Virus genome (UHGV): UHGV-0019120
Direction: 5' to 3' (one strand)
Length of the DNA: 31,192 nucleotides
Source of the DNA: a virus
Position 1 is the first letter of the stretch. Every line of letters begins with the position of its first letter. A model generated the notes under the pieces. It saw only the letters and a list, made by a program, of their open reading frames with translations. It was not told the DNA's origin and ran no database searches. Positions 1,695 to 29,667 of the stretch are shown piece by piece. The translations under genes and the position numbers were made by a program.

Positions 1695-1993
1695 GCCACA
1701 GCCCCTCTCAACGGCTTAACTTTGGCTAATAAGGTGTTAAACAACATGGAGTTAGGATTCATGCCAAATGGCAATTCCGGTTTAGCGGAGTAGTACAGGC
1801 AACCATTTATTTTCCTGGTTGTTATCTGTCCTTCGGCAACCATGCTTCTCAGTCTGCAACGCATAGAGTTCTGCGACACACCAATGTGCTCCGCGATTAC
1901 GTCCACTTTTGAACATGGGTGATCGGTCAGGAAATTAATCACATCTTGGGGGTTAATAATTTTGCGTTTCATTGTCGAGGCGTCCTTATACAT
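1691..1993 (-). CDS. putative winged-helix DNA-binding protein
   Basis: 100-aa ORF; central segment VDVIAEHIGVSQNSMRCRLRSMVAEGQI resembles a wHTH recognition helix and wing; AT-rich TATA-motif promoter region directly upstream (1994-2018). Start may be the internal MKRK. Confidence 0.45.
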   Translation of the reverse strand: MYKDASTMKRKIINPQDVINFLTDHPCSKVDVIAEHIGVSQNSMRCRLRSMVAEGQITTRKINGCLYYSAKPELPFGMNPNSMLFNTLLAKVKPLRGAVA

Positions 1994-2049: not shown

Positions 2050-3117
2050 TCAGGCTTTCAATAGCGATTCTTTTAGATATCGGGCATCAGCCAGGGCGTT
2101 TGGAGTAATCTTGCGAACCCATGCATTACGGGTTGGACTCCACTTAAAGGCGCGTGATTTAAGCAGCGAACGAATGTTTGCCTCTGGTTTGCCAGGGAAA
2201 TAAAACAGGATGCGGTTATCCTCTGGATCTATCTCCATAGAAAAGCCGTCGTATTCTTCGCGCTGTGCTCCTGTTACAGACTTGACCGATTCAAGCTCCT
2301 TAATACGGCTCTGTAGTCGTTTGATTTCGGCGTTATTGTTGCTCAGTGCGTATGAAGGGAATCCGATGCGCCCACAGAAATCTCCGGCCAGTAACTCTTT
2401 GGCTTCGCTTTCTGTAAACCTGAGATCGATTAATGCAGAAAGCTGCTGTATTTGGTCTTTTTTGTATTTGCGAATGGCCTTATTTGCGGCCTTCATTTTG
2501 ACGTGTGACTTCATGCAGCCTTGCAGCTTACGAAGCAACTTAAATAGCGCATCAGGATCATCAGACGAAATTCCATTACGACCAACACCTGCGGCTTTGC
2601 TCTCGTAGTGTGATGCTTTACTTTCGCATTCAACAAACGCTTTTCTGAATAACGCATCAGCTTTAGACAAACGGCGGCGATGGCCTTTCGCGCTATAATG
2701 GTCAACTAAAATCGGCTGGCCTAACGGGATCACATCCAACAGGTCATGCGCTCGCTTATGCGCTACCGCACCTTCTTTTCTGGCTTTTTCTGCACAAGCA
2801 ATATATCGGGCAAGACGCGCGTTCTGGCGTTCCTGATAGGTGTTTACGTAATCATCTCCGCGCTGCTGCTGTTCAAGCCATGCTTTGCGCAGATCTTCTG
2901 TTACGTCCACCAGCTCCGCAGGGATACAACCAGTTTGGGCTTCATAAGAGTAACCATCCTCATAGATACGCCCATCGTCTTCAACAAAGAAAAAGGTTTC
3001 GTGCTCATCGCTTTTGACCATACGACCATTAACATGGCGTAATAGGTAGCCAGTATCAGTGCTTAACAGGCTGTTAGGGTTGTTGATCCAGTCAGAAATA
3101 ATTACTTGTTTATTCAT
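2050..3117 (-). CDS. hypothetical protein, possibly DUF3560-like
   Basis: ORF track gives 373 aa to 3171; I place the start at ATG 3117 (MNKQVI...) because a GGAG RBS lies about 6 nt upstream and the duplicated promoter block begins at 3124. C-terminal FYFPGKP...FKWSP...W motif recalls DUF3560; unverified. Confidence 0.5.
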   Translation of the reverse strand: MNKQVIISDWINNPNSLLSTDTGYLLRHVNGRMVKSDEHETFFFVEDDGRIYEDGYSYEAQTGCIPAELVDVTEDLRKAWLEQQQRGDDYVNTYQERQNARLARYIACAEKARKEGAVAHKRAHDLLDVIPLGQPILVDHYSAKGHRRRLSKADALFRKAFVECESKASHYESKAAGVGRNGISSDDPDALFKLLRKLQGCMKSHVKMKAANKAIRKYKKDQIQQLSALIDLRFTESEAKELLAGDFCGRIGFPSYALSNNNAEIKRLQSRIKELESVKSVTGAQREEYDGFSMEIDPEDNRILFYFPGKPEANIRSLLKSRAFKWSPTRNAWVRKITPNALADARYLKESLLKA

Positions 3118-3123
3118 CAGATT

Positions 3124-3225
3124 TCTCCGGTTTAACCAGGGCGGGTATCGCTCGGTTTCGGGTATAACCATAGGAAATTTTTTCCCACCTGTAAAGCACT
3201 TTTTATATAAATCTATAATTATATA
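3124..3225. repeat. 102-bp promoter/leader block, copy A
   Basis: 101/102 identical to 11972..12073. Read on the minus strand it contains an AT-rich upstream element, TTTACA-N17-TATGGT promoter, short leader and GGAG RBS. Confidence 0.9.
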
Positions 3226-3286
3226 TTTATAGATTTTCGATGTTCCCGATGTCTACACACCATCAAAACAGCTCAAAATGACACTT

Positions 3287-3664
3287 TTACTCTCTTCGCT
3301 TTTTCAAATAGTCGACAACATACGCCCTGGCTTTTGCCAGCTTCCGGCGATACTGTCTGAGGCTAAGAGAAAGGGCGTGGGCTTTATCAATATGCGGTGC
3401 ATTTATGTCGAGGCCCCGAATCTCCCACGCCCCGTATTCAATTCGGACAACCAGCGCCGCAGTCTCATCAACTACCGTGAGGGCCGTCACCGCTCCCTCT
3501 ATACTGGTTTCCAGTGAGTCATTTGGTGCGCCGCCCCCTCCGGTAAACTGGCAGCGCGTAACCATCATCATTTCTAACATCGACGCGAAACCGCTACGGG
3601 CGTTGCAGCCATTGCGCACCCACAGCGCCCATAGCTCAAACAAGCTATCCAGATCGCGTCTCAC
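3287..3664 (-). CDS. putative Q-like late antiterminator
   Basis: 125 aa; N-terminus MRRDLDSLFELWALW and basic C-terminus resemble what I recall of E. coli prophage Q homologues (Phage_antitermQ-like); last gene of the minus-strand early-type operon. Confidence 0.45.
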   Translation of the reverse strand: MRRDLDSLFELWALWVRNGCNARSGFASMLEMMMVTRCQFTGGGGAPNDSLETSIEGAVTALTVVDETAALVVRIEYGAWEIRGLDINAPHIDKAHALSLSLRQYRRKLAKARAYVVDYLKKRRE

Positions 3665-4634: not shown

Positions 4635-5146
4635 TGATGGCCCCCGTCATTTCTGGTGCTTTTCACCGTGCGGCTTCTTAAAAACCTGCCATCACGAACA
4701 ACAGACACTTCTCGTTTACCCAACCTCATTTCACGGCGGTAACATTCAGAAAATGCCTCGTCCGGCATCATATAAATGCGACGCTTCGCCTCCGTATCCA
4801 GAAGGGAACGGCTTGGGGTTACATATAAGAACGACTCATCAATAGGGACAAAACCACGAGCAAGAATTGCTGGCAGAATACCAGGAAGAACGCAGAAAAC
4901 AGCTCCACGATGCAGCAACATCTGGTACTCCATGACCTCCGTAATCCCCGTAACGACTGTTACGGTGTCACGTCTGTTACGGCTGGCAACCAGTCGCTGC
5001 ACACCTCCAATTTTCTGCTCTACAGATAGACGTTTGCTATCGTTATCAATATGATCGATAACAAATCCTTTAATCGTTTGATCAAGGTAGTGCACCACCT
5101 GCGATTGAATCTGGTGATTATCACCAAAGAAGGCCAGAATCATCAT
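4631..5146 (-). CDS. hypothetical protein
   Basis: 171-aa ORF inside the minus-strand operon; no motif recognised. Confidence 0.45.
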   Translation of the reverse strand: MMILAFFGDNHQIQSQVVHYLDQTIKGFVIDHIDNDSKRLSVEQKIGGVQRLVASRNRRDTVTVVTGITEVMEYQMLLHRGAVFCVLPGILPAILARGFVPIDESFLYVTPSRSLLDTEAKRRIYMMPDEAFSECYRREMRLGKREVSVVRDGRFLRSRTVKSTRNDGGHQ

Positions 5147-5637
5147 TCCTCAAGCCTCCCAAGTGCTGAACGCCGGGCGTTGCTAATCTCCTTATGAATC
5201 AGCTCGATATCGCTGGAATCTTTATTCTTAAGCTCCAGCACGGTAATCGCATCACGAACCTCTGAAACGGTTACGTGTGAGTGTTTCCAGCGAGCAATGA
5301 ATCGCGGACCGCGTAGATTGCAACGCTCCGCAGGCATCCCCAGCTCAGAGAAAACCGCTTTCAGCCTTGATAAGCAGTTAACAGGGAGATTCCCTTTGAT
5401 CTTGTTCTGCCGAACCGATGTGCCATCGCTACGCTGGCGCTGACGTTCGGCAAAATCTGCCGCCCATTGCTGGACGTTAATCCGGCCTTCCGAATACGCC
5501 ACCAGCAGCGTCAGGTTATCCGCACGAGGGAATCTCTCGAAGCGATACCAGGCACCAATCAGTGATGACGTAAAGCCAAACTTTCTGGCAACACCAATTT
5601 GGCCTCCATTTTCGTCAACCCACTCCTGAAAGGTCAT
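5143..5637 (-). CDS. putative Cro/YdaS-like HTH regulator with C-terminal extension
   Basis: 164 aa; N-terminal GGQIGVARKFGFTSSLIGAW...P resembles the YdaS/Cro-type HTH; transcribed divergently from the CI-like gene with shared operators. Confidence 0.45.
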   Translation of the reverse strand: MTFQEWVDENGGQIGVARKFGFTSSLIGAWYRFERFPRADNLTLLVAYSEGRINVQQWAADFAERQRQRSDGTSVRQNKIKGNLPVNCLSRLKAVFSELGMPAERCNLRGPRFIARWKHSHVTVSEVRDAITVLELKNKDSSDIELIHKEISNARRSALGRLEE

Positions 5638-5656
5638 TTAACGAACTCCAGTTAAA

Positions 5657-5774
5657 ACCACGATACGTGGTATTAAAACCACATATCGTGAGTTTTTCAA
5701 TGGGCGAAACAAAAAATAACCTTCTATTTGTGGTCCACCTCTCGTCTTACCATGTGAAAACCACTAAATGTGGT
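5657..5774. promoter_or_regulatory. operator cluster in the divergent immunity promoter region
   Basis: ACCACGATACGTGGT (5657-5671), imperfect ACCACATATCGTG (5678-5690), half-site TTTGTGGT (about 5727-5734), ACCACTAAATGTGGT (5760-5774); all follow ACCAC-N5-GTGGT. Confidence 0.6.
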
Positions 5775-5811: not shown

Positions 5812-6468
5812 ATGAAAAGCAACGACGAGAACATCAAGAAAGAAATAGGTCTGCGCATTCAGACTCTACGGAAACAATCCGGCATGACTGCCGGAGATCT
5901 CCAGCAAGTCACTGGAATAGGCTTAAGCACCTTGCAGAACTATGAGGCCGGATTAAGACAACCATCTATACCTGCCATCAAGAAAATCGCGCACGCCCTG
6001 AAAGCATCAGCGCCTTATATCGCGTGCTTAACAGATAACCCGTTCCCACCCCAGAATACTAACGCTCCTGTTATTCCTGGGCTTGTAGCTATAAAAAATG
6101 ACATAGCATCGCACGCCGGAGAAAAGCCAGTGCTGGCGATAGAACAGGAGATTCTACGAAGCAAGAACATCAACCCATCGTCTCTGTCAGTTCTCCAGAG
6201 CAACGATGAGTTAATGTCACCAACAATATCCCCAGGCTCCCAAGTCCTGATTAATACAGACGATACAGAGATTCATGAGGGGATCTATGCCCTTGAAGAC
6301 AGAAATGGCCTGGTTGTTTTGAGGCACTGTAGAGTCATACCGGGTGACAATGCTGTTATGCTGTCAACCGAAAGGGATGCTGAAATGAACACTAAGCATC
6401 TGAATAACGAGGAATTTAAGCGTTATAAAGTTCTTGGCCGCGTAGTTAGTGTTGTCAACTGGTTATGA
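5812..6468 (+). CDS. CI/LexA-type prophage repressor (HTH_XRE plus S24-like C-terminal domain)
   Basis: 218 aa; N-terminal HTH (LRKQSGMTAGDLQQVTGIGLSTLQNYEAG), C-terminal LMSPTISPGSQVLIN and FKRYK...GRVVSVVNWL resembling the LexA/CI Ser-Lys autocleavage domain. Confidence 0.75.
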   Translation: MKSNDENIKKEIGLRIQTLRKQSGMTAGDLQQVTGIGLSTLQNYEAGLRQPSIPAIKKIAHALKASAPYIACLTDNPFPPQNTNAPVIPGLVAIKNDIASHAGEKPVLAIEQEILRSKNINPSSLSVLQSNDELMSPTISPGSQVLINTDDTEIHEGIYALEDRNGLVVLRHCRVIPGDNAVMLSTERDAEMNTKHLNNEEFKRYKVLGRVVSVVNWL

Positions 6469-6510
6469 TACACAGCACGGCGAAAGCCGTGCATTTCTAC
6501 GCTCAAAAAA

Positions 6511-6525
6511 ACCACATTTTGTGGT
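6511..6525. promoter_or_regulatory. operator copy downstream of the repressor gene
   Basis: AAAACCACATTTTGTGGTTTT palindrome (core 6511-6525) adjacent to TTGACA at 6528. Confidence 0.5.
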
Positions 6526-6560
6526 TTTGACAACATGTAAAAGTATAAAAGAGGCTACGC

Positions 6561-6939: not shown

Positions 6940-6959
6940 AAGCGGGCTAACGCCCGCTT
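6940..6959 (+). terminator. hairpin after the 124-aa ORF
   Basis: AAGCGGGC-TAAC-GCCCGCTT stem-loop; downstream tract only moderately T-rich. Confidence 0.4.
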
Positions 6960-6960
6960 A

Positions 6961-7062
6961 TATGATTATAGATTTATATAATTATATAAAACGCTTTTCA
7001 TCAGCCAAAAAGTTGGTTATGCTTACCTCGTTCTATAAATATAGATTTATAGAATTATATAA
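6961..7062. promoter_or_regulatory. centromere-like / operator repeat arrays upstream of parA
   Basis: Two AT-rich blocks (6961-6988, 7033-7062) carrying TATAGATTT / TATAGAATT 9-mers, partly as direct copies offset by 8 bp. Confidence 0.5.
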
Positions 7063-7085
7063 CCAAACACATGGAGTCTCGACAA

Positions 7086-7739
7086 ATGACTATCTCTGTA
7101 GGTATTTTCAACGGAAAAGGCGGCGTAACCAAATCAACAATTGCCCGTGCTTTAGCAGTTGCTTATGCAAAGGCTGGCTGGAATGTATGCCTGATCGATA
7201 TGGATGTGCTTAACGGAACGGTAACGCGTTGGGTACAACGCAGAATGGCCAACAATATCGAACCAGCAATCGCGGCGCAGCCGTGCGGCACACCATCACA
7301 AGTCCAGAAAATCATCGAATCAGAAGTATACGACCTGGTTATCGTCGATGGCGGTGCCTACGCATCTGAATCAGTACCGAAGCTATCTGAATTTCTGGAT
7401 ATGGTTATTTTGCCAACCCGATTCTCTACCGATGACCTGGAAACCACCGTTAACACTGCTCACGGCATCGTTAAAAAGGGTGTACCAATCAAGAAAATTT
7501 GCATGGTGTTTTCCGGCGCGGCTGAAAACGAAGCTGACTATATTGAAGCCCAAGAGTACCTGGCTAATACGCCATACTTTGTTGTCGATAAGTACATTCC
7601 CCACAAGCCAGCTCTGAGCAAAGCTCAGGATAAGGGCTTAAGCCTCATTGAGTGCTCATACGTTGCGCCACGCAAAAAGGCAGACGACGTTATTCAGGGG
7701 ATTATCAACCAGCTTGAGGCTCTGACTACTGCCGCATAA
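7086..7739 (+). CDS. parA: ParA/ParF-type partition ATPase
   Basis: Deviant Walker A FNGKGGVTKST, A-prime motif VCLIDMD, B-like DLVIVDGGA; start placed at ATG 7086 (GGAG RBS) rather than track start 7071. Confidence 0.8.
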   Translation: MTISVGIFNGKGGVTKSTIARALAVAYAKAGWNVCLIDMDVLNGTVTRWVQRRMANNIEPAIAAQPCGTPSQVQKIIESEVYDLVIVDGGAYASESVPKLSEFLDMVILPTRFSTDDLETTVNTAHGIVKKGVPIKKICMVFSGAAENEADYIEAQEYLANTPYFVVDKYIPHKPALSKAQDKGLSLIECSYVAPRKKADDVIQGIINQLEALTTAA

Positions 7740-7770
7740 TATATAATTATAGTTTTATAGATTTATATAA
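7737..7770. promoter_or_regulatory. TATAG(T/A)TTT repeat block upstream of the RHH gene
   Basis: TATAGTTTT and TATAGATTT direct copies offset 8 bp, between parA stop and the next start. Confidence 0.45.
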
Positions 7771-7782
7771 GAGGGGATACAC

Positions 7783-8031
7783 ATGGCCGCACCATCAAAA
7801 CCACCAAAGAAGAACAGCAAAGGCGTACCGCCATCGATCGAACAACCGCAGGTTTTCGACCCGACTGAAACGCCAACCAGAACCAAATCAGGTGGGGCAC
7901 AAATGGCGTTTAACGTCGACCCTGAATTTAAACGCGAGTACAAAACGTTCGCCAGCTCAATGGATATGTCATTGAAAGAAGTGCTGACAAAGTCTTTTGA
8001 GTTACTCAAGGCTCAATACAACCAGAAGTAA
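7783..8031 (+). CDS. putative ParG-like ribbon-helix-helix centromere-binding protein
   Basis: 82 aa; disordered basic N-terminal tail then MAFNVDPEFKREYKTFA...MSLKEVLTKSFELL, a beta-strand/helix/helix RHH pattern; directly downstream of parA; AGAGGGG RBS. Confidence 0.55.
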   Translation: MAAPSKPPKKNSKGVPPSIEQPQVFDPTETPTRTKSGGAQMAFNVDPEFKREYKTFASSMDMSLKEVLTKSFELLKAQYNQK

Positions 8032-8252: not shown

Positions 8253-8276
8253 TAAAAAAGGCCCCCGAAGGGGCCT
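8253..8276 (-). terminator. intrinsic terminator for the minus-strand small gene
   Basis: GGCCCC-CGAA-GGGGCC hairpin; A6 on the plus strand gives a U-run on the minus strand. Confidence 0.55.
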
Positions 8277-8281
8277 AATCG

Positions 8282-8404
8282 CTACTTGCTGCTAATGTTT
8301 ATCGTCACATTCAGAGCGTTATCAGTAATCTTCCAACCCTCCCCATGTGGCGTAAACAAAGCCCCAGTAACAACGATAAAAATACACATACAGTATTTTT
8401 TCAT
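8282..8404 (-). CDS. small hydrophobic peptide (about 40 aa)
   Basis: MKKYCMCIFIVVTGALF... with AAGGG RBS and own terminator; track ORF 8282..8464 is longer. Confidence 0.3.
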   Translation of the reverse strand: MKKYCMCIFIVVTGALFTPHGEGWKITDNALNVTINISSK

Positions 8405-8802
8405 TGTATGGCCCTTACAGGCCGTTTCACGGCATCCCCACCGACGAAAACAACGCGAGAGCAAGCACGGCTGCTTGTGCTTGCATGTACGGCAACGGAG
8501 AATCCTCCCCTAAAGTCGGTGCCCGGGTGCGAATCGGCGGGAAGGTCCACAGGTATTTTACGATTATTTTAAGATTAGTAATAGGAAAGAAATTAAACGA
8601 AAAAACTCGTTTATTTTCACAAAATCAGTAACCTACCCACAATCTGTGAGTTTGCAGGCACAACAAGAACCACAATTTTTTGAAGCATAATAGTGGACTA
8701 TTATTACCTTTTGGGTAAAATTAACTTGCTGCTTGTGCTTGCGTGGTTGTTTATACAACGACGTTATGCTGAAAGGACCGCGAATCCGATCAGCACGAAA
8801 GA

Positions 8803-8883: not shown

Positions 8884-8994
8884 GTATTGACATGAATGCG
8901 CCATTGGTGGACACTTTCCGAGCCGTAGCAAAATCTACGGTCGGGATTGGAACCCCGTAGACACAATGGCGCATACCGCGTTAGCGGTTTTTTT
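8884..8994 (+). ncRNA. candidate structured small RNA (c4-like antisense regulator)
   Basis: Extended -10 TGtTAAAAT near 8866-8874; 9-bp outer stem 8898-8906/8964-8972 enclosing two hairpins, one with loop ATTGGAAC; ends at short hairpin plus T7 (8975-8994). No ORF. Confidence 0.35.
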
Positions 8995-9160
8995 ATGCGT
9001 AAAGCACTGCTACACCCAAATTATGGTGGGGCGTGCGGGGGAGTCGTAAGACTCGCCGGTTCGTCATTGTGTCCGGTAGTTCCAACCCTGCACGTCTCAC
9101 CACCCAATGATTGGAACCTGACGGTGGTGAGTATCCTTAACCTTTAAGGGAATCATCACA

Positions 9161-9352
9161 ATGACAAACCTACCCCATGACTATTACGTCAACCTCGTAA
9201 AGATCCTTCTCAAGAAAGCCTCATACGCCGATAAATTCCGCCTGGCTGAAATCATCGAGCGCGAAGCTATGCGCATCGCCAGCAACGATAACGCTGTTTC
9301 TGACGCAAAAATCTCCCTCGTAACCAAAGTAGTTATGGGAGGTGCAAAATGA
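9161..9352 (+). CDS. small protein translationally coupled to the antirepressor (icd-like position)
   Basis: 63 aa; AAGGGA RBS; stop overlaps start of the next gene (ATGA-type overlap at 9349-9352). Confidence 0.4.
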   Translation: MTNLPHDYYVNLVKILLKKASYADKFRLAEIIEREAMRIASNDNAVSDAKISLVTKVVMGGAK

Positions 9353-10494
9353 AAACGCTTCCGACCGTTAACACCCTACAGCCTATCCTGCATAACCAAA
9401 TCCCTGTCATTACTACCGAGTTACTAGCACAGCTTTACGGCACTGAGCCGGTGCGTATTCGCCAGAATCATCATGAGAACAAAGCACGTTTCGTTGAAGG
9501 GAAACACTTTTTCAAAGTTGTTGGTAATGACCTTAAAGAATTGCGGGTAGCTTTAAACTACTCTCAAAATCCAGTTTCACCTAAAGTCCGCTCCCTCATC
9601 CTCTGGACAGAACGCGGGGCTGCACGTCACGCTAAAATGCTCGAAACCGATCAGGCGTGGGATGTATTCGAACGGCTGGAAGACTGCTACTTCAACCAGA
9701 ACGCGCAAACGGCCGCGACCGTAACCGTCTCACCAAACAATGCTCGTGAGGTTGTCGATACGCTCAACGCTAAACCAATGTATTACGTTAAGGTGTGCAA
9801 CAACGAGCCACTCACAACCTCAGCCGATGTTGCCCAGGCATTCAGCACCACAAACAATTCCATCGTTATGGCCATCGATGCGTTACGCATTCCTCGCACA
9901 GCTGCGGCGCGTCACTTCTTTAAAGAACAACGACCGCTGGAAGGAAGCGACCGCGAAATAACAATCTATCGCATGACAAAAGACGGATTTACCTTGCTCA
10001 TGGAAAGTATCGACGGTCCAGGCGTGAAGGATATCAAGCTGGCCTACATTGAAGCCTTTAACGCTATCAGCAGCATGTTAAAGGCAGAATACGAGCGAAT
10101 GCTATACAACCGACTGTATCAGGAAACAAAGATTATCCGAACGGCAACAGAACATCATCGGCTATTAACGGAACCAAACTACCGCAAGACACTAATCAAA
10201 GAGTTTGACAAGGCGACGGAGAAAACTAAAGCGGCACTAAATCTACCAACAATGACTAAAGATGATGTGATATCAGCCTTACTTCTTGATCTGCTCAGAA
10301 ACGTCAGAGCACTTATCAGTTTTGACGAAAACCTGAATCCTCAGCTCAAGCTACTACCACCGACAGGCAAAGTAGTCGACCAGGCTGATCACAACAGCAT
10401 ACTCAGCGTTCTGGATGCAAACCTGCCAGCCAGGACACTACAGGATCTGATAAAAACATGTGCTGATAAGCTGGCACAGAAAAGCAGACCATAA
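9349..10494 (+). CDS. phage antirepressor / regulatory protein (ORF6N-like plus Rha-like domains)
   Basis: 381 aa; N-terminal ITTELLAQLYG...EGKHFF...ILWTERGAARHAKMLETDQAWDVFERLEDCYF resembles ORF6N; central TTSADVAQAF...YRMTKDGFTLLM...IEAFN resembles Rha. Confidence 0.7.
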   Translation: MKTLPTVNTLQPILHNQIPVITTELLAQLYGTEPVRIRQNHHENKARFVEGKHFFKVVGNDLKELRVALNYSQNPVSPKVRSLILWTERGAARHAKMLETDQAWDVFERLEDCYFNQNAQTAATVTVSPNNAREVVDTLNAKPMYYVKVCNNEPLTTSADVAQAFSTTNNSIVMAIDALRIPRTAAARHFFKEQRPLEGSDREITIYRMTKDGFTLLMESIDGPGVKDIKLAYIEAFNAISSMLKAEYERMLYNRLYQETKIIRTATEHHRLLTEPNYRKTLIKEFDKATEKTKAALNLPTMTKDDVISALLLDLLRNVRALISFDENLNPQLKLLPPTGKVVDQADHNSILSVLDANLPARTLQDLIKTCADKLAQKSRP

Positions 10495-10498
10495 CTAC

Positions 10499-10524
10499 AA
10501 GGGGCTACGGCCCCTTACTCTTTT
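10499..10524 (+). terminator. intrinsic terminator after the antirepressor gene
   Basis: AAGGGGC-TACG-GCCCCTT hairpin followed by T-rich ACTCTTTTCTCTCT. Confidence 0.6.
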
Positions 10525-10693
10525 CTCTCTTATCAACACCAGAGACTTTCTGAAAATCCTTTCGAATAGCGTCAGCGTCACGCGCCAAGCCCATACTCGA
10601 ACGTGTCGCCATATGACGAAAATGATCAACTGCCGGAAACAAAGAAATAATGGACCCAATAGCTTGCAGCAAACTCGCTTTTCTACGCATCAT
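10505..10693 (-). CDS. hypothetical small protein
   Basis: About 62 aa from ATGATG at 10693 with GGTGGA RBS; track ORF extends to 10717 with a GTG start. Confidence 0.3.
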   Translation of the reverse strand: MMRRKASLLQAIGSIISLFPAVDHFRHMATRSSMGLARDADAIRKDFQKVSGVDKREKSKGP

Positions 10694-11230
10694 AATTCCA
10701 CCATAACCGATAGCCACCCTTCAGACACAACCCCCCCTCCCCCCATACAGGGTGTCCTTTACCGGAGTTCCGGCCCCTTCTCAAAAGCATCAAAAAAAGC
10801 TCGAGATCGAGTACCGGAACTCATGCCACCAGATAGCTCCACATCGTTTCCAATGCTTCGCCGCCGTGTGCGCCCTGTGGCCCACAATCATGCCATTGGT
10901 CGTCTGATATACCTTCTTCTGCTCATTGAGCACAGGCGAGTTGTCGCACTCCTGCCTTTCTCAGACTCGACTTAGTTTAGATCGCTGTTCCTGGCTTGCG
11001 TCAGCACACTTTCCCCTTGTACGCATACCCGCGCGCCACTCCGCCCAAAAACACCGAACCCAACGAAGTGGCAAAGACAACGACGCGAGCGTGAGTCTGA
11101 AACAGGCACCAGTAAAAAAGGGGTTGCAGGCGCAAAAAGATTTGATTATCTTTAGACGCAAGAAAGCCGCCCCAATCAAGAGGTGTCTTTTTAAATCCAG
11201 CCTACCAAGCAAGATTTAAATTTCAGACTG

Positions 11231-11256: not shown

Positions 11257-11583
11257 TCTTTCTGGCGCTTACATTACACCACCATAAAACGATCCGTAAA
11301 GGATCATTTGATCCCTTGTTCCAATTCTGACGACACTTTAACCTTTTCCCATACAAGGGTTTGCAGCCTTAACAGAATCGCATCTTTATCAAGGTGTGAA
11401 AGATCCTTAACCATATCGTCAAACGACAGAACGCGAATGGCCATCTCAATGACCCTCGGCGGCTCGCTCCTGCGTCCAGTTCATCCCACGACGCCATAAT
11501 TTCAATTCATAACCCGTCATAGCATCCTCCTCGCACAATATTAACACTCGCAAAGTGTCAAAATGACACTTTGCGTATTGTGT

Positions 11584-11964
11584 TTACTTAACGAGGAATA
11601 AAAATGGTTTATTGTTCGGCGGTGTAATCGGGGCTGGCTCGCTTTTGCTCATGCGATCAGTGTACCAGGCCAGCTCCTTGTCAAAGTAAGCCTGATTAAA
11701 ATAGGCCATGAATGTAGTTTCAAATCCATAACGACCGCTAATACGCAGCATCTGATTGCCGTTCTCTGTTTCCAGATATACCTGGGCACGTTCCTGATTC
11801 TCCTTCAGCCAGGTTAAAGCCTCATCGCACGAGGACACACGATACTCATCATCGTAGCCGTCATCGATGCGGCTTGAAGAAGAACGGCAAATCACGCCGA
11901 CAGAACCAGCCAGGATAGTTTGAATTTTAAGGAAAGCGTTTTTGCGGATTTTAATCATGCTCAT
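11584..11964 (-). CDS. hypothetical protein expressed from promoter block copy B
   Basis: 126 aa; GGAG RBS; immediately downstream of repeat copy B; followed by a 27-bp perfect palindrome (11549-11575). Confidence 0.5.
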   Translation of the reverse strand: MSMIKIRKNAFLKIQTILAGSVGVICRSSSSRIDDGYDDEYRVSSCDEALTWLKENQERAQVYLETENGNQMLRISGRYGFETTFMAYFNQAYFDKELAWYTDRMSKSEPAPITPPNNKPFLFLVK

Positions 11965-11971
11965 CGGGTTA

Positions 11972-12073
11972 TCTCCGGTTTAACCAGGGCGGGTATCGCT
12001 CGGTTTCGGGTATAACCATAGGAAATTTTTTCCTACCTGTAAAGCACTTTTTATATAAATCTATAATTATATA
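11972..12073. repeat. 102-bp promoter/leader block, copy B
   Basis: Single mismatch relative to 3124..3225 (CCTACC vs CCCACC). Confidence 0.9.
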
Positions 12074-12231
12074 AATAATAGTGACTGGTGCTTTTTTAGG
12101 CTTCACATTAAACATTTTTGTTTAGCTTATTGGCAAGGTCTTGAAAAAGACATTTCAGCAATGGTATACCATTGAACATGGTATCGGCTGAATTTTACAA
12201 TTAACACATTTTAAACAATTGGAGGTGCAAA

Positions 12232-13440: not shown

Positions 13441-13731
13441 CTATTTTTGTGACTTTACTCCTGGCATATGGACTTCCCAGCGACGAATCCCCATAGCTGC
13501 GCAAAAATCAGCCACATAATTCAATCCCGCCCATTCGCGGATACCACCACGGGCTTTTTCAATGAAAACGGCAATCCCTTTTTTATTGAGAGCAAAAAGC
13601 CGCCAGCTTTTTGTCACTTCGTCCTGGGTAGCCACAACACAAGTGAAAGCTCCCATGCGATACAGGTCCAAGAACTCTTTGCGTGTTTTGCGTACAAGTT
13701 CCATAACAAACCTCATATTTGCATGTTTCAA
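13441..13731 (-). CDS. hypothetical protein
   Basis: 96 aa; 4-bp overlap with the upstream HTH gene. Confidence 0.4.
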   Translation of the reverse strand: MKHANMRFVMELVRKTRKEFLDLYRMGAFTCVVATQDEVTKSWRLFALNKKGIAVFIEKARGGIREWAGLNYVADFCAAMGIRRWEVHMPGVKSQK

Positions 13732-14027
13732 ACATCTGTTTTGTTATCAATGAAGATTAACCCTAACCCAGCGAAGTAACACAGCAGCGCCCAGGCTGCA
13801 TACGGAATGCTGGATCTGGATGTGGACTCCTTTAACATCTGCCAGTTGCGAACATTGCGACTATCTTTTAAGCCTAGTTTTTTGGCTAACTGCGAGCCGC
13901 TCATTCCGGTCAGGCCAATGACTGCCCGAACTTCTCCACATGTAGGAGATTCCCATTCATCCGCTTTTTTTAAACAAGCCGGATTCAACATTTTTAAAAC
14001 AGTATCTTTATCCATAACCATCTCCAT
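13728..14027 (-). CDS. XRE-type HTH protein with C-terminal hydrophobic segment
   Basis: 99 aa; HTH LTGMSGSQLAKKLGLKDSRNVRNW then a roughly 20-residue hydrophobic stretch IPYAAWALLCYFAGLGLIFI. Confidence 0.45.
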   Translation of the reverse strand: MEMVMDKDTVLKMLNPACLKKADEWESPTCGEVRAVIGLTGMSGSQLAKKLGLKDSRNVRNWQMLKESTSRSSIPYAAWALLCYFAGLGLIFIDNKTDV

Positions 14028-14029
14028 TT

Positions 14030-14658
14030 ATTATATCTACGATGGTAGGAAATCTTTTCCTATGTAGCAATAGAAATTTACTACATTGCGTATAAGACAA
14101 GTTTTCTATGTCTAATAGGAAATGAGGTTTCTTACGTTTTATCGCGTTCTGATGGCTACTGTGTGCGTATTTATCGACGTTTATTGATAAGGCTCGCCCC
14201 TTCCTCCTGCAAAGCCCGGCCGTAGGCCTTATTTCGGCCTTATATAAATTGATTTTGTATAGTTCGAAACGCGCCGTTTCGAAAAGGATGATCAGGCTGC
14301 TCCATGCCTCCGGCAAGTGCCGGAGGAGGTATATTTGAGCGTAGCGACTCGAACCGGCGCGAGCTTTAGCTCGCTGCAAGGGCGAACATATTCACAGGCA
14401 AAGCCTGTGTAAGTTAAATAAAGAAAGTCTTAATAAAAGAAAGTAATTTTGCATTTATTTGTTTAGTGCATCTATTATAAAAAACCATTTGCATATACAT
14501 ATCAAAACTGTGGATAACTTTATTAGCCGATGCCTGTAAAGGCGATATTTTTGCTGTGTTCAGGTTTAGAGAAAATTAATTTAGATTGTTTTTTGAACAG
14601 ATGTTTTATTGCGACGTAGATAATCCTCCGGTAAAACCGGATTCATCATTCAGGTGGG
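14030..14658. other. candidate replication origin (oriR-like) downstream of repA
   Basis: AT-rich tract 14400-14600 with perfect DnaA box TTATCCACA (minus strand, 14509-14517) and a cluster of GC-rich perfect hairpins at 14263-14409. Confidence 0.45.
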
Positions 14659-28203: not shown

Positions 28204-29667
28204 TTATTCAGAAAACAAGTTCAGCAGATAATCAGGATTATATTCCATGACGAACTCTATATCTCTGGCAGGTGAGAATGGTGTCATTTTCACATGGAAT
28301 TTAACAATCCCGTCCATCAATGACGTAATCGTGTTTTCAGACTGATCAAAGGTAACAACACCACCTGCAATATCCTGATTACCAGTGAGGCCGTTAAGCC
28401 AAATATTCGCACTAGTAACAATCGATTCAATTAATCGACGGTTTGCAGGATTGTCTATTTTTGACCAATGCGAAAGAATTAACGTATTACCCACCCAGTT
28501 AAACATACGTCGGCAAACACGAAATGCGTCTTTGGGGTCTGTAGATGTTGGATAAATAGCATTACGGTTTCCCCATGATTTCCAACCATCAAAATTAAGG
28601 CTTGTTACAATCCCCTGTCCATTTAAGTAGTTTGCCTGGCTAATGTTAAGCCATACCTCACTGCCATCTTTACGTACAGCACCGTCCATCTGTAGTTTTA
28701 TATTTGACGGAGAACGTGATGGAATATCACCATACTGACTATCCAGCAAGCATGTTGCTGCCGCTAAATGGGTTGAGTGATGGTAAATATTGTCACCAAG
28801 TTTCACCATCGGCCAGCACACTGTCTGGTTAGCTGCCATATGATTATTGTTCTGCTTCCATTCAGGAACAGCAGAATAATCACTGATAGTAGATTTATCA
28901 GTCGGCGCATCGGTGATAGCTTCTGCTTTGAACAATTCACTAATCAGCGCAGCTTTAGCCGCCATTAGCTGGCCAACTTCACTATCAGAACTAAATCCAG
29001 GCGCAATCACTTGTCCTGGAACTAGTTTGAAGCGGGGATAAACATCCGACAGTAACTCAAGCCCCGTATTCGCTTTAGTGTTGGAATCCACACCACCAAT
29101 AATATCGTTTTTAGTTACAGCCCCGGGATCAAGATGCGTATAACTAACCTTAAGAGTGGCGTCTTTTTCAGTAATTTTTCCTCCGCTAATAGCGGTAATG
29201 ACCGTATAGCCATTATCATCCAGCGCCAGTACATAATCTGTATCAACCGTTAACCCTGGAGAATCACCATCTGCTTTTTTCACAACAACAGATTTATATA
29301 AGACACCATCGTTAGAGAGCGTACCTTTCCCGCCAGAAAGTTTTACTACCTCATCAGTTACGTCTTTCTTATGCTTTGCTGGATCAAGCACATTGATAAA
29401 TACAACTGGCGCAACACCATATATTCCAAATGCGACTTTAATTACTTCGCTTAAAGTATATTTCTCGAAGTTTGTGCTATATCCTATTTTAGATACGGCC
29501 TCTGCGTATGTATAAGCAATGATAGGTTTATTTACCGCTGAGGCTGGATCTTCTAACTGATTAACAGGAGCTGTACCAAATGCGACAATCAACCCAGCAC
29601 TAACTTGTACTGGAGGAGTTATAGATGTAGCCAGCTCAGATATATAAATACCGTGGCGATATCCCAT
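28204..29667 (-). CDS. contractile tail sheath protein (P2 FI-like)
   Basis: 487 aa; C-terminal WGNR...KFHVKM...Y block resembles sheath proteins. Confidence 0.8.
   Translation of the reverse strand: MGYRHGIYISELATSITPPVQVSAGLIVAFGTAPVNQLEDPASAVNKPIIAYTYAEAVSKIGYSTNFEKYTLSEVIKVAFGIYGVAPVVFINVLDPAKHKKDVTDEVVKLSGGKGTLSNDGVLYKSVVVKKADGDSPGLTVDTDYVLALDDNGYTVITAISGGKITEKDATLKVSYTHLDPGAVTKNDIIGGVDSNTKANTGLELLSDVYPRFKLVPGQVIAPGFSSDSEVGQLMAAKAALISELFKAEAITDAPTDKSTISDYSAVPEWKQNNNHMAANQTVCWPMVKLGDNIYHHSTHLAAATCLLDSQYGDIPSRSPSNIKLQMDGAVRKDGSEVWLNISQANYLNGQGIVTSLNFDGWKSWGNRNAIYPTSTDPKDAFRVCRRMFNWVGNTLILSHWSKIDNPANRRLIESIVTSANIWLNGLTGNQDIAGGVVTFDQSENTITSLMDGIVKFHVKMTPFSPARDIEFVMEYNPDYLLNLFSE

Follow-up and report, generated by a model that had tools for sequence, protein, structure and literature searches.

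AcrIF24, from a Pseudomonas aeruginosa prophage, is both an anti-CRISPR protein and an Aca repressor, and the promoter of acrIF23-acrIF24 (TTGCAT-N17-TATAGT) holds between its -35 and -10 elements a 17-bp inverted repeat that starts with TAG and ends with CTA, and through which AcrIF24 represses this promoter (PMC9638941). The acr-aca1 leader opens, immediately past the transcription start, with an inverted repeat some 20 nt long that ends about 20 nt before the start codon and is bound by Aca1, the hairpin having a conserved lower stem, at most two unpaired bases and a covarying 3-bp upper stem; binding of a leader hairpin by Aca2 blocks translation, Aca proteins are predicted to control several (neighbouring) operons, and Aca14, a ribbon-helix-helix (RHH) protein, has been shown to control several operons (PMC13551039). 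Here we describe a promoter-leader cassette of comparable layout in UHGV virus genome UHGV-0019120, where it is repeated almost letter for letter in front of unrelated genes; the whole stretch of 31,192 nucleotides that was analysed is called the window. With moderate confidence, and from sequence comparison, we read the cassette as a portable, Aca-type repressor-controlled promoter-leader module that has been multiplied before accessory genes and carries added arrays of sites for a partition protein.

The two copies in the window, at 3124-3225 (copy A) and 11972-12073 (copy B), are direct repeats of 102 nt that differ at one position (G3186 in copy A, A12034 in copy B), as the original prediction had it and as alignment and a repeat finder agree. 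The expected count of the 42-nt repeat core in 100 shuffles of the full related plasmid was 0.00, so that the repeat is not a product of chance. Beyond the 102 nt the copies remain alike as far as the ATG, with one indel, and over one extra 8-bp unit upstream, which brings the functional unit to about 120 bp. Its edges are sharp, one coinciding with the first array unit and the other with the start codon, and the DNA flanking the copies is unrelated. The cassette does not belong to a longer duplicated gene segment. Its parts, and the genes that it precedes, are listed below.

3115-3234, minus strand: copy A, whole unit
3203-3234, minus strand: copy A array of four 8-bp units, ATCTATAA ATATATAA TTATAGAT TTATATAA, ending 7 bp before the -35 element
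3167-3195, minus strand: copy A predicted sigma-70-type promoter, TTTACA (3195-3190), 17-bp spacer, TATGGT (3172-3167)
3171-3187, minus strand: copy A 17-bp inverted repeat TGGGAAA-AAA-TTTCCTA, which fills the promoter spacer and is a candidate operator of the protein p95 described below
3134-3157, minus strand: copy A leader hairpin with outer stem AACC/GGUU, bulged G, inner stem GCG/CGC and loop AUACC
3115-3128, minus strand: copy A Shine-Dalgarno sequence GGAG (3128-3125) and ATG (3117-3115) of the DUF3560 gene
2050-3117, minus strand: copy A gene, a DUF3560 protein of 355 aa, followed by a GC-rich hairpin (about 2018-2039) and an array (1986-2017)
11962-12082, minus strand: copy B, whole unit
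12051-12082, minus strand: copy B array, ACTATTAT TTATATAA TTATAGAT TTATATAA, its first unit degenerate
12015-12043, minus strand: copy B predicted sigma-70-type promoter, TTTACA-N17-TATGGT
12019-12035, minus strand: copy B perfect inverted repeat TAGGAAA-AAA-TTTCCTA within the promoter spacer
11982-12005, minus strand: copy B leader hairpin, identical to that of copy A
11584-11964, minus strand: copy B gene, an ORFan of 126 aa (phrog_8090), preceded by the cassette in lineages 1, 2 and 4

The minus-strand arrangement that had been proposed, TTTACA-N17-TATGGT and a GGAG feeding the unrelated genes at 2050-3117 and 11584-11964, is found in both copies, with GGAG standing 7-8 nt before the ATG in each. 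Transcription would start near 3158-3160 in copy A and near 12006-12008 in copy B; the hairpin begins about 3-4 nt past the predicted start and, in copy A, ends about 16-17 nt before the ATG (about 20 nt in other lineages). The proposal of a promoter-plus-leader module that puts unrelated genes under common control is in this respect supported.

The window represents 31 kb of a circular Escherichia coli phage-plasmid of about 48 kb and contains two of its three copies. The third is present in every complete relative, about 6.9 kb past the left end of the window, and is given here for the relative L002 (NZ_LR130559.1).

L002 27571-27684: copy C, in front of an 89-aa gene and directly after an MT-A70 methyltransferase gene

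Comparison with relatives had been suggested as a way of telling one copy from two; multiple copies are indeed the rule, complete relatives having three and not two. A distant blastn search of the cassette against plasmids (expectation value, E, up to 10) gave nothing but AT-rich noise outside the close family, and diverged loci were found through homologues of the 125-aa gene that adjoins copy A, which yielded about 20 loci of the same backbone synteny. Four lineages carry cassettes, at two to four copies per element: lineage 1 (the window, L002, L023 and L024), lineage 2 (L013 and L025-L028), lineage 3 (L032) and lineage 4 (L033). Across these lineages the position of the promoter and its 17-bp spacer are kept in all 28 cassette copies, with a distance of 81-83 nt from the -35 element to the ATG. 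Array, inverted repeat and hairpin, by contrast with this fixed frame, have lineage-specific sequences, with compensatory changes between lineages.

The inverted repeat has the general form T(A/G)GGAAA-N3-TTTCCTA in the spacers of the window; the half-site of lineage 1 is AGGAAA, that of lineage 2 AGGACT and that of lineage 3 AGGTCA, AGGACY also occurring among the four lineages. The repeat is symmetric in 92% of alignment cells, a share that does not exceed 51% once the partner column is slid, and three of its seven symmetric positions show changes on both sides between lineages. The leader hairpin behaves in the same manner: its outer stem reads AACC..GGUU, GGCC..GGCC or GACC..GGUC and its inner stem GCG, GAC(A) or AGCA according to lineage, its positions are paired in 90.6% of cells versus at most 41% in slid alignments, and both-sided changes are seen at five of the eight pairs. 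Changes from G-C to G-U occur in the sense orientation only, which points to folding of the mRNA itself. Applied to 349 kb of related sequence, a covariance model of the leader (R1) finds every cassette and nothing else, while Rfam at gathering thresholds has no match in the cassette. Folding of single leaders gives weak and inconsistent z-scores (-0.7 to -3.4), the structure becoming clear only from the cross-lineage alignment.

The same 17-bp repeat recurs at a further promoter, which drives a small helix-turn-helix (HTH) protein.

13728-14015, minus strand: p95, a 95-aa HTH protein and candidate repressor acting on the inverted repeat
14042-14070, minus strand: fourth promoter, TTGCTA-N17-TACCAT, driving p95, with TAGGAAA-AGA-TTTCCTA at 14046-14062 and neither array nor hairpin

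The repeat fills the spacer of every cassette and also that of the p95 promoters in lineages 1 and 3, those of L023 and L032 bearing their own lineage's version; the p95 homologues of lineages 2 and 4 are encoded distally within cassette operons. As a profile, the homologues of p95 hit AcrIF24 in its HTH "body" domain (E 1.9e-6 to 3e-6; 7dtr, 7elm and 7xi1) and, more weakly, Aca1 and Aca3 (E about 1) and HipB. Furthermore, searched with a hidden Markov model, the p95 family is restricted to lineages having inverted repeat and hairpin; in lineages that have neither, an 87-aa gene beside repA is kept and p95 is absent. Because p95 co-occurs with repeat and hairpin, it is a likelier partner of the repeat than the 125-aa protein, and because the spacer repeat is shared with the promoter of an AcrIF24-like HTH gene, repression appears a better account than late activation.

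The likeness to the AcrIF24 system thus extends to an HTH domain homologous to p95, to a 17-bp repeat that fills the spacer and to a regulator whose own gene lies under the same operator; the promoter in lineage 2 reads TTGCAT-N17-TATTAT with TAGGACTAAAAGTCCTA. The systems differ in that p95 is an HTH domain alone (95 aa), without the Cascade-binding domains, that the half-sites here are of 7 bp with a 3-bp gap instead of 8 bp with a 1-bp gap, and that the repeat stands at four promoters and not one, with no known anti-CRISPR gene in the operons. With the Aca1 and Aca2 regions the cassette shares a putative operator in the promoter, a hairpin of the same layout and position after the start, and, as predicted here, one regulator for several neighbouring operons. 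The regulator family differs (p95 against Aca1, E about 1), the hairpin is unlike the DNA operator, and the copies are near-identical over 100-120 bp where the Aca regions merely share motifs; p95 may bind the leader hairpin, RNA binding by p95 being an analogy. As far as sequence allows the features to be recognized, an Aca-like regulator gene in or next to the operons, a promoter-overlapping repeat and a structured 5' untranslated region are all present.

Two other regulators encoded nearby were considered and rejected. The CI-like repressor was set aside as binder of the spacer element, since the CI operators in the divergent region at 5655-5770 read ACCAC-N5-GTGGT. Four such sites are seen, within 5655-5770, between the divergent CI-like gene (5812-6468) and a 164-aa gene (5143-5637), and at 6508-6533, after the repressor gene; they are probably CI operators and unrelated to the elements of the cassette. 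A 90-aa XRE gene after the 126-aa gene was also rejected, as it occurs in lineage 1 only and is truncated here by a 46-bp deletion. In comparison with NZ_LR130559.1 this XRE/RstR-like gene has lost 46 bp at the junction 11456-11465 and stops after 25 codons, and the window also contains about 196 bp extra at 10517-10712.

The third part of the cassette is the array of 8-bp units upstream of the promoter. Type Ib partition proteins such as ParG also act as repressors; in the ParF-ParG/parH system of TP228 and with omega of pSM19035 the centromere-binding proteins are RHH proteins that double as repressors, and omega represses several operons. The corresponding features of the window and of L002 are as follows.

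6958-7070, plus strand: two arrays of TTATAKAW units (repeat finder) upstream of parA (7086-7739)
7739-7778: third parA-flanking array, between parA and an 82-aa gene
7783-8031, plus strand: ParG-like protein of 82 aa, after parA, candidate binder of the 8-bp arrays
1986-2017: array after the DUF3560 gene, with no promoter
L002 28788-28835: promoterless array

The original prediction had seen in this part an AT-rich upstream element. The cassette has an ordered array of four units, and since the same ordered 8-bp units also flank parA, a protein-binding array is a better description than a generic UP element. In the window the units belong to the family TTATAKAW, and across the cassette lineages they read TTATAKAW, GATATAWW, TTAAAGAW or ATATAAAW. 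In every lineage parA is flanked, in the same arrangement, by arrays of lineage-specific units, and a gene for a small protein of 80-98 aa lies directly downstream of it. Because the same arrays flank parA, those of the cassette are probably sites of the small ParG-like RHH protein. The 82-aa protein has a disordered basic N-terminus, then a beta-strand QMAFNV and two helices (..QMAFNVDPEFKREYKTFASSMDMSLKEVLTKSFELLKAQY); a single-sequence AlphaFold2 model contains two C-terminal helices with a block-mean predicted local distance difference test (pLDDT) score of 91-92 over residues 51-80. It weakly matches the RHH protein SvtR (2kel) in a PDB profile search (E 0.74), had no match in Pfam, and a Foldseek search with the model was uninformative. 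The beta-strand varies together with the array unit across lineages (QMAFNV, QLL(F/L)RL, QLLLQL, LMNFNV and PLNFKR). ParA itself, of 217 aa, is of the small Walker type (NF041546, E 4e-22, which lies below the curated cut-off).

The likeness to type Ib partition (TP228, omega) therefore lies in a small Walker ParA lacking an N-terminal HTH, in a small basic-tailed protein with an RHH-like C-terminus and in short-repeat arrays with 8-bp phasing upstream of parA, the RHH fold and its binding being predicted here from sequence and model. The difference is that arrays here also stand at promoters of non-partition genes and beside terminators in phage operons. Cassette-free lineages (L034, L029, L030, L015, L011 and L014) likewise scatter 8-bp arrays of their own, for example AACGAAAT or TAAATAAT, before many genes and beside terminators; the array system is older and wider than the cassette.

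The anatomy of the cassette, its conservation and covariation, the homology to AcrIF24 and the joint occurrence of the parts are thus observed; from them we infer the following mode of action, by which the module would give accessory genes a start both strong and switchable. Sigma-70 RNA polymerase would initiate at TTTACA-N17-TATGGT, and dimeric p95 (13728-14015) would use the 17-bp spacer repeat as operator and, through the same repeat, repress its own gene, as Aca repressors do. The ParG-like RHH partition protein would bind the four 8-bp units, and because these same units make up the parA operator or centromere, we propose that a maintained plasmid would also silence the cassette promoters. 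The conserved bulged hairpin at the start of the transcript, about 19-20 nt before the ATG, would act at the RNA level, either by binding p95, on the analogy of Aca1 and Aca2, or by stabilising the mRNA. Upon entry into a cell without repressor the cassette genes would, in this proposal, fire and then be shut off, and such a logic, which is that of phage switches for anti-defence genes, would make the driven genes candidates for anti-defence or establishment functions. We infer this candidate role for the DUF3560 protein, the 126-aa ORFan and the 89-aa and 65-aa pair from the control logic alone. Only as a tentative extension do we suggest that the cassettes form a regulon of undescribed anti-defence or establishment genes, to which the ORFans in other lineages would also belong, silenced jointly by p95 (on the DNA and perhaps on the hairpin) and by the partition protein, which would couple partition to the shut-off of counter-defence, the cassette being a standard "plug" that was copied before new genes and homogenised by gene conversion.

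That the copies are kept uniform by gene conversion is borne out by the substitutions that distinguish one element from another, which every copy in the same element has in common: immediately past the -10 element the next six bases read TATACC, AGTAAC or GACAAC, and hairpin loops, as well as the stretch from GGAG to ATG in L023 and L024, show further differences that are specific to the element and shared by its copies. These shared substitutions indicate concerted evolution, and gene conversion was one of the two causes of near-identity first put forward. Deletion between the repeats had also been envisaged, and the repressor and par genes do lie within the interval between copies A and B; such deletion was not seen, most of the listed genome records and full-length plasmid records showing three places (median 3, range 1-6). 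Separately, a 15-mer, AAAGTGTCATTTTGA, occurs exactly twice in the window, where zero occurrences are expected, both times on the minus strand: at 3273-3287, directly after the stop codon of the 125-aa gene and just upstream of copy A, and at 11558-11572, as one arm of a perfect hairpin 3' of the 126-aa gene of copy B. The pair may be a recombination scar.

The units driven by the cassette have the character of inserts. In the third copy the driven genes are a pair, of 89 aa and 65 aa, and intrinsic terminators end most cassette units in lineages 2 and 4 as well as the third-copy unit in L002. A motif, CCTCGACAATG, whose ATG is a start codon, occurs at most once per locus, in 16 of 34 loci, and directly after an array (listed below).

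1973-1983, minus strand: CCTCGACAATG in the window
L002 33304-33314: CCTCGACAATG
L027 10417-10427: CCTCGACAATG

In lineages 2 and 4 the array and CCTCGACAATG follow the 125-aa gene directly, whereas in lineage 1 cassette A, the DUF3560 gene and its hairpin lie between them. Since the array-CCTCGACAATG junction thus follows the DUF3560 module in one case and the 125-aa gene in the other, copy A and the DUF3560 gene together represent an insertion. Phage morons are inserts that consist of promoter, gene and terminator. The cassette units resemble them in having a predicted promoter, one or two ORFans and mostly a terminator, and in being inserted between conserved backbone genes; they differ in that a single standard, regulated promoter-leader, identical through gene conversion, serves every insert of a given element.

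Of the other explanations, the one that fares best concerns the gene directly upstream of copy A.

3287-3664, minus strand: "Q-like" gene, 125 aa, with a sigma-region-4-like HTH; its glycine-rich N-terminal part was modelled poorly

The original prediction had suggested that the cassette could be a late-type promoter, and in its explicit form this explanation holds that the 125-aa protein loads on RNA polymerase through a Q-binding element in the spacer and reads through terminators into lysis and structural genes. The Q21-family regulator AlpA indeed binds an element that lies between -35 and -10, and a pause element resembling a -10 hexamer is required by factors of the Q type (PMC9371919). 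The top Foldseek matches of a model of the 125-aa protein are to Q21, and are weak (E 0.3-1); a search of genome contigs with a profile of this protein found a single locus. In common with lambdoid PR'/qut and with AlpA-PalpB, the cassette has an element between -35 and -10, a regulator gene just upstream of it in lineages 1 and 3, and terminators downstream. These terminators are strong and intrinsic and lie, in L002 and outside the window, within the leftward lysis and morphogenesis operons, after the third-copy unit and before the holins (27086-27063, 26387-26366 and 30479-30452), from which it is likely that the element possesses some antitermination system.

We nevertheless regard this explanation as improbable, comparison between lineages having made a late-type, Q-dependent promoter unlikely. 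The Q-like gene is present in 15 of 15 diverged loci, among which only nine (L013, L023-L028, L032 and L033, of the four lineages) have cassette features, that is, hairpin and/or inverted-repeat promoter, so that cassette and Q-like gene do not co-occur as regulator and target should be expected to. The cassettes of lineages 2 and 4 are found some 6.5-9 kb upstream of the Q-like gene, where the units that they drive are short, terminated and directed towards the antirepressor region, and the Q-like gene itself is followed by no more than a bare array. In lineage 1, moreover, copy A and the DUF3560 gene were inserted between the Q-like gene and the array-CCTCGACAATG junction. The element is two-fold symmetric, unlike those of the lambdoid and AlpA systems, and the same repeat is found in the p95 promoter, where there is no terminator logic. 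No conserved -10-like hexamer (A at position 2, T at position 6) was found in the aligned leaders when a sigma-dependent pause was sought, although GATAGT, CATAGT or the like turns up by chance in some hairpin loops. Finally, a region of leader plus terminator, 170 nt long, before the holins is a better candidate for a Q target.

This last region, at L002 30640-30452 and outside the window, is an untranslated stretch of 170 nt with CACGAT and a strong terminator just before the holins; its resemblance to a PR'-tR' pair suggests a separate, antitermination-dependent late promoter. The 125-aa protein also matches the NCBIfam "PA0613 family" over its full length, though below threshold (E 2.5e-4). 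The uncharacterised gene PA0613 lies between regulators and lysis genes in the pyocin cluster of Pseudomonas aeruginosa, and a literature search turned up no functional paper about it.

A second explanation, to which we assign slightly less probability still, is that the arrays are extra partition centromeres, as in the linear phage-plasmid N15, and that what remains of the cassette is a constitutive promoter of the ordinary kind, copied by gene conversion and having neither a dedicated repressor nor a role as RNA. The arrays do flank parA, they also occur without promoter (1986-2017, L002 28788-28835, and after the Q-like gene in lineage 2), and the concerted evolution of the copies is evident. 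Yet gene conversion alone leaves unexplained the compensatory symmetry and pairing that repeat and hairpin maintain in four lineages, and the explanation accounts neither for the recurrence of the repeat in the array-free p95 promoter nor for the co-occurrence of p95 with repeat and hairpin. Lastly, that the hairpin, or the spacer palindrome if transcribed from upstream, is a put- or nut-like signal for RNA antitermination or processing, which modifies RNA polymerase or recruits an N-like factor, is very improbable: a conserved hairpin at the very start of the transcript and terminators downstream would suit it, but there is no Rfam family match, the single 24-nt hairpin is far smaller than put RNA, neither a boxA-like element nor a GNRA-like boxB loop is present, most units of lineages 2 and 4 simply end at their own terminator, and in some relatives a terminator stands immediately upstream of copy B, so that the palindrome is not transcribed there.

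Several observations weigh against the reading of the cassette as an Aca-type module. The covariation comes from few independent events, because the changes track a handful of lineages. The -10 element is TATGGT or TAAGGT among close relatives, and the leader hairpin does not resemble the DNA inverted repeat. The 82-aa protein is assigned to the RHH class from the pattern of its sequence and from a model built on one sequence. Beyond copy C no further promoter is recognisable ahead of the packaging and structural genes, and strong terminators come after this copy, which makes a role in late expression conceivable. Additionally, the driven proteins match no known anti-defence protein or solved structure in sequence searches of Pfam, PHROGs, NCBIfam and PDB, the PDB searches with the three driven proteins having been without match; the searches yielded only DUF3560, DUF1391 and families of unknown function, and a literature search on DUF3560 found no functional information.

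With regard to the host element, the genes of the phage-plasmid include a P2-like tail, an IncFII-type RepA, ParA, HigBA, a CI-like repressor and a P1-like C4/icd/ant region. In this last region Rfam places a row of RNAs, ryfA (8254-8550, minus strand), isrK (8922-8994, plus strand) and the C4 antisense RNA (9019-9107, plus strand), upstream of an icd-like gene (9161-9352) and an ORF6N antirepressor gene (9349-10494); judged by its sequence, this is an antirepressor control region of the P1 immI kind in a phage-plasmid other than P1. Outside the window, L002 has a tRNA-Met (CAT) gene at 28582-28657, with the lysis genes on one side and the MT-A70 methyltransferase gene on the other. The window is 97.6% identical to the Yersinia phages vB_YpM_39, vB_YpM_41 and vB_YpM_44, on which a literature search found no paper. 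The name pSLy3 was considered for the phage-plasmid family and rejected, as pSLy3 belongs to the SSU5 supergroup.

The cassette was matched in 65 PLSDB plasmid records, 62 of them at full length, and is carried by 74 of 5426 complete E. coli genomes (about 1.4%), almost always on a plasmid and with a median of three copies. Carriers include the reference strain ATCC 25922 (plasmid NZ_CP009073.1), and related elements infect Yersinia pestis. The cassette also exemplifies how a single regulated promoter-leader can serve repeatedly in one genome while gene conversion keeps its copies alike. Should the reading of the cassette as an Aca-type module be true, the cassette would be an inexpensive sequence marker by which unknown genes for anti-defence or establishment could be recognised in enterobacterial phage-plasmids, and it could be searched for with covariance model R1 or with repeat and hairpin together. 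Aca-type control would then extend to a stand-alone family of AcrIF24-like HTH proteins, and these phage-plasmids would provide a case, open to test, in which a partition protein silences phage accessory genes globally.

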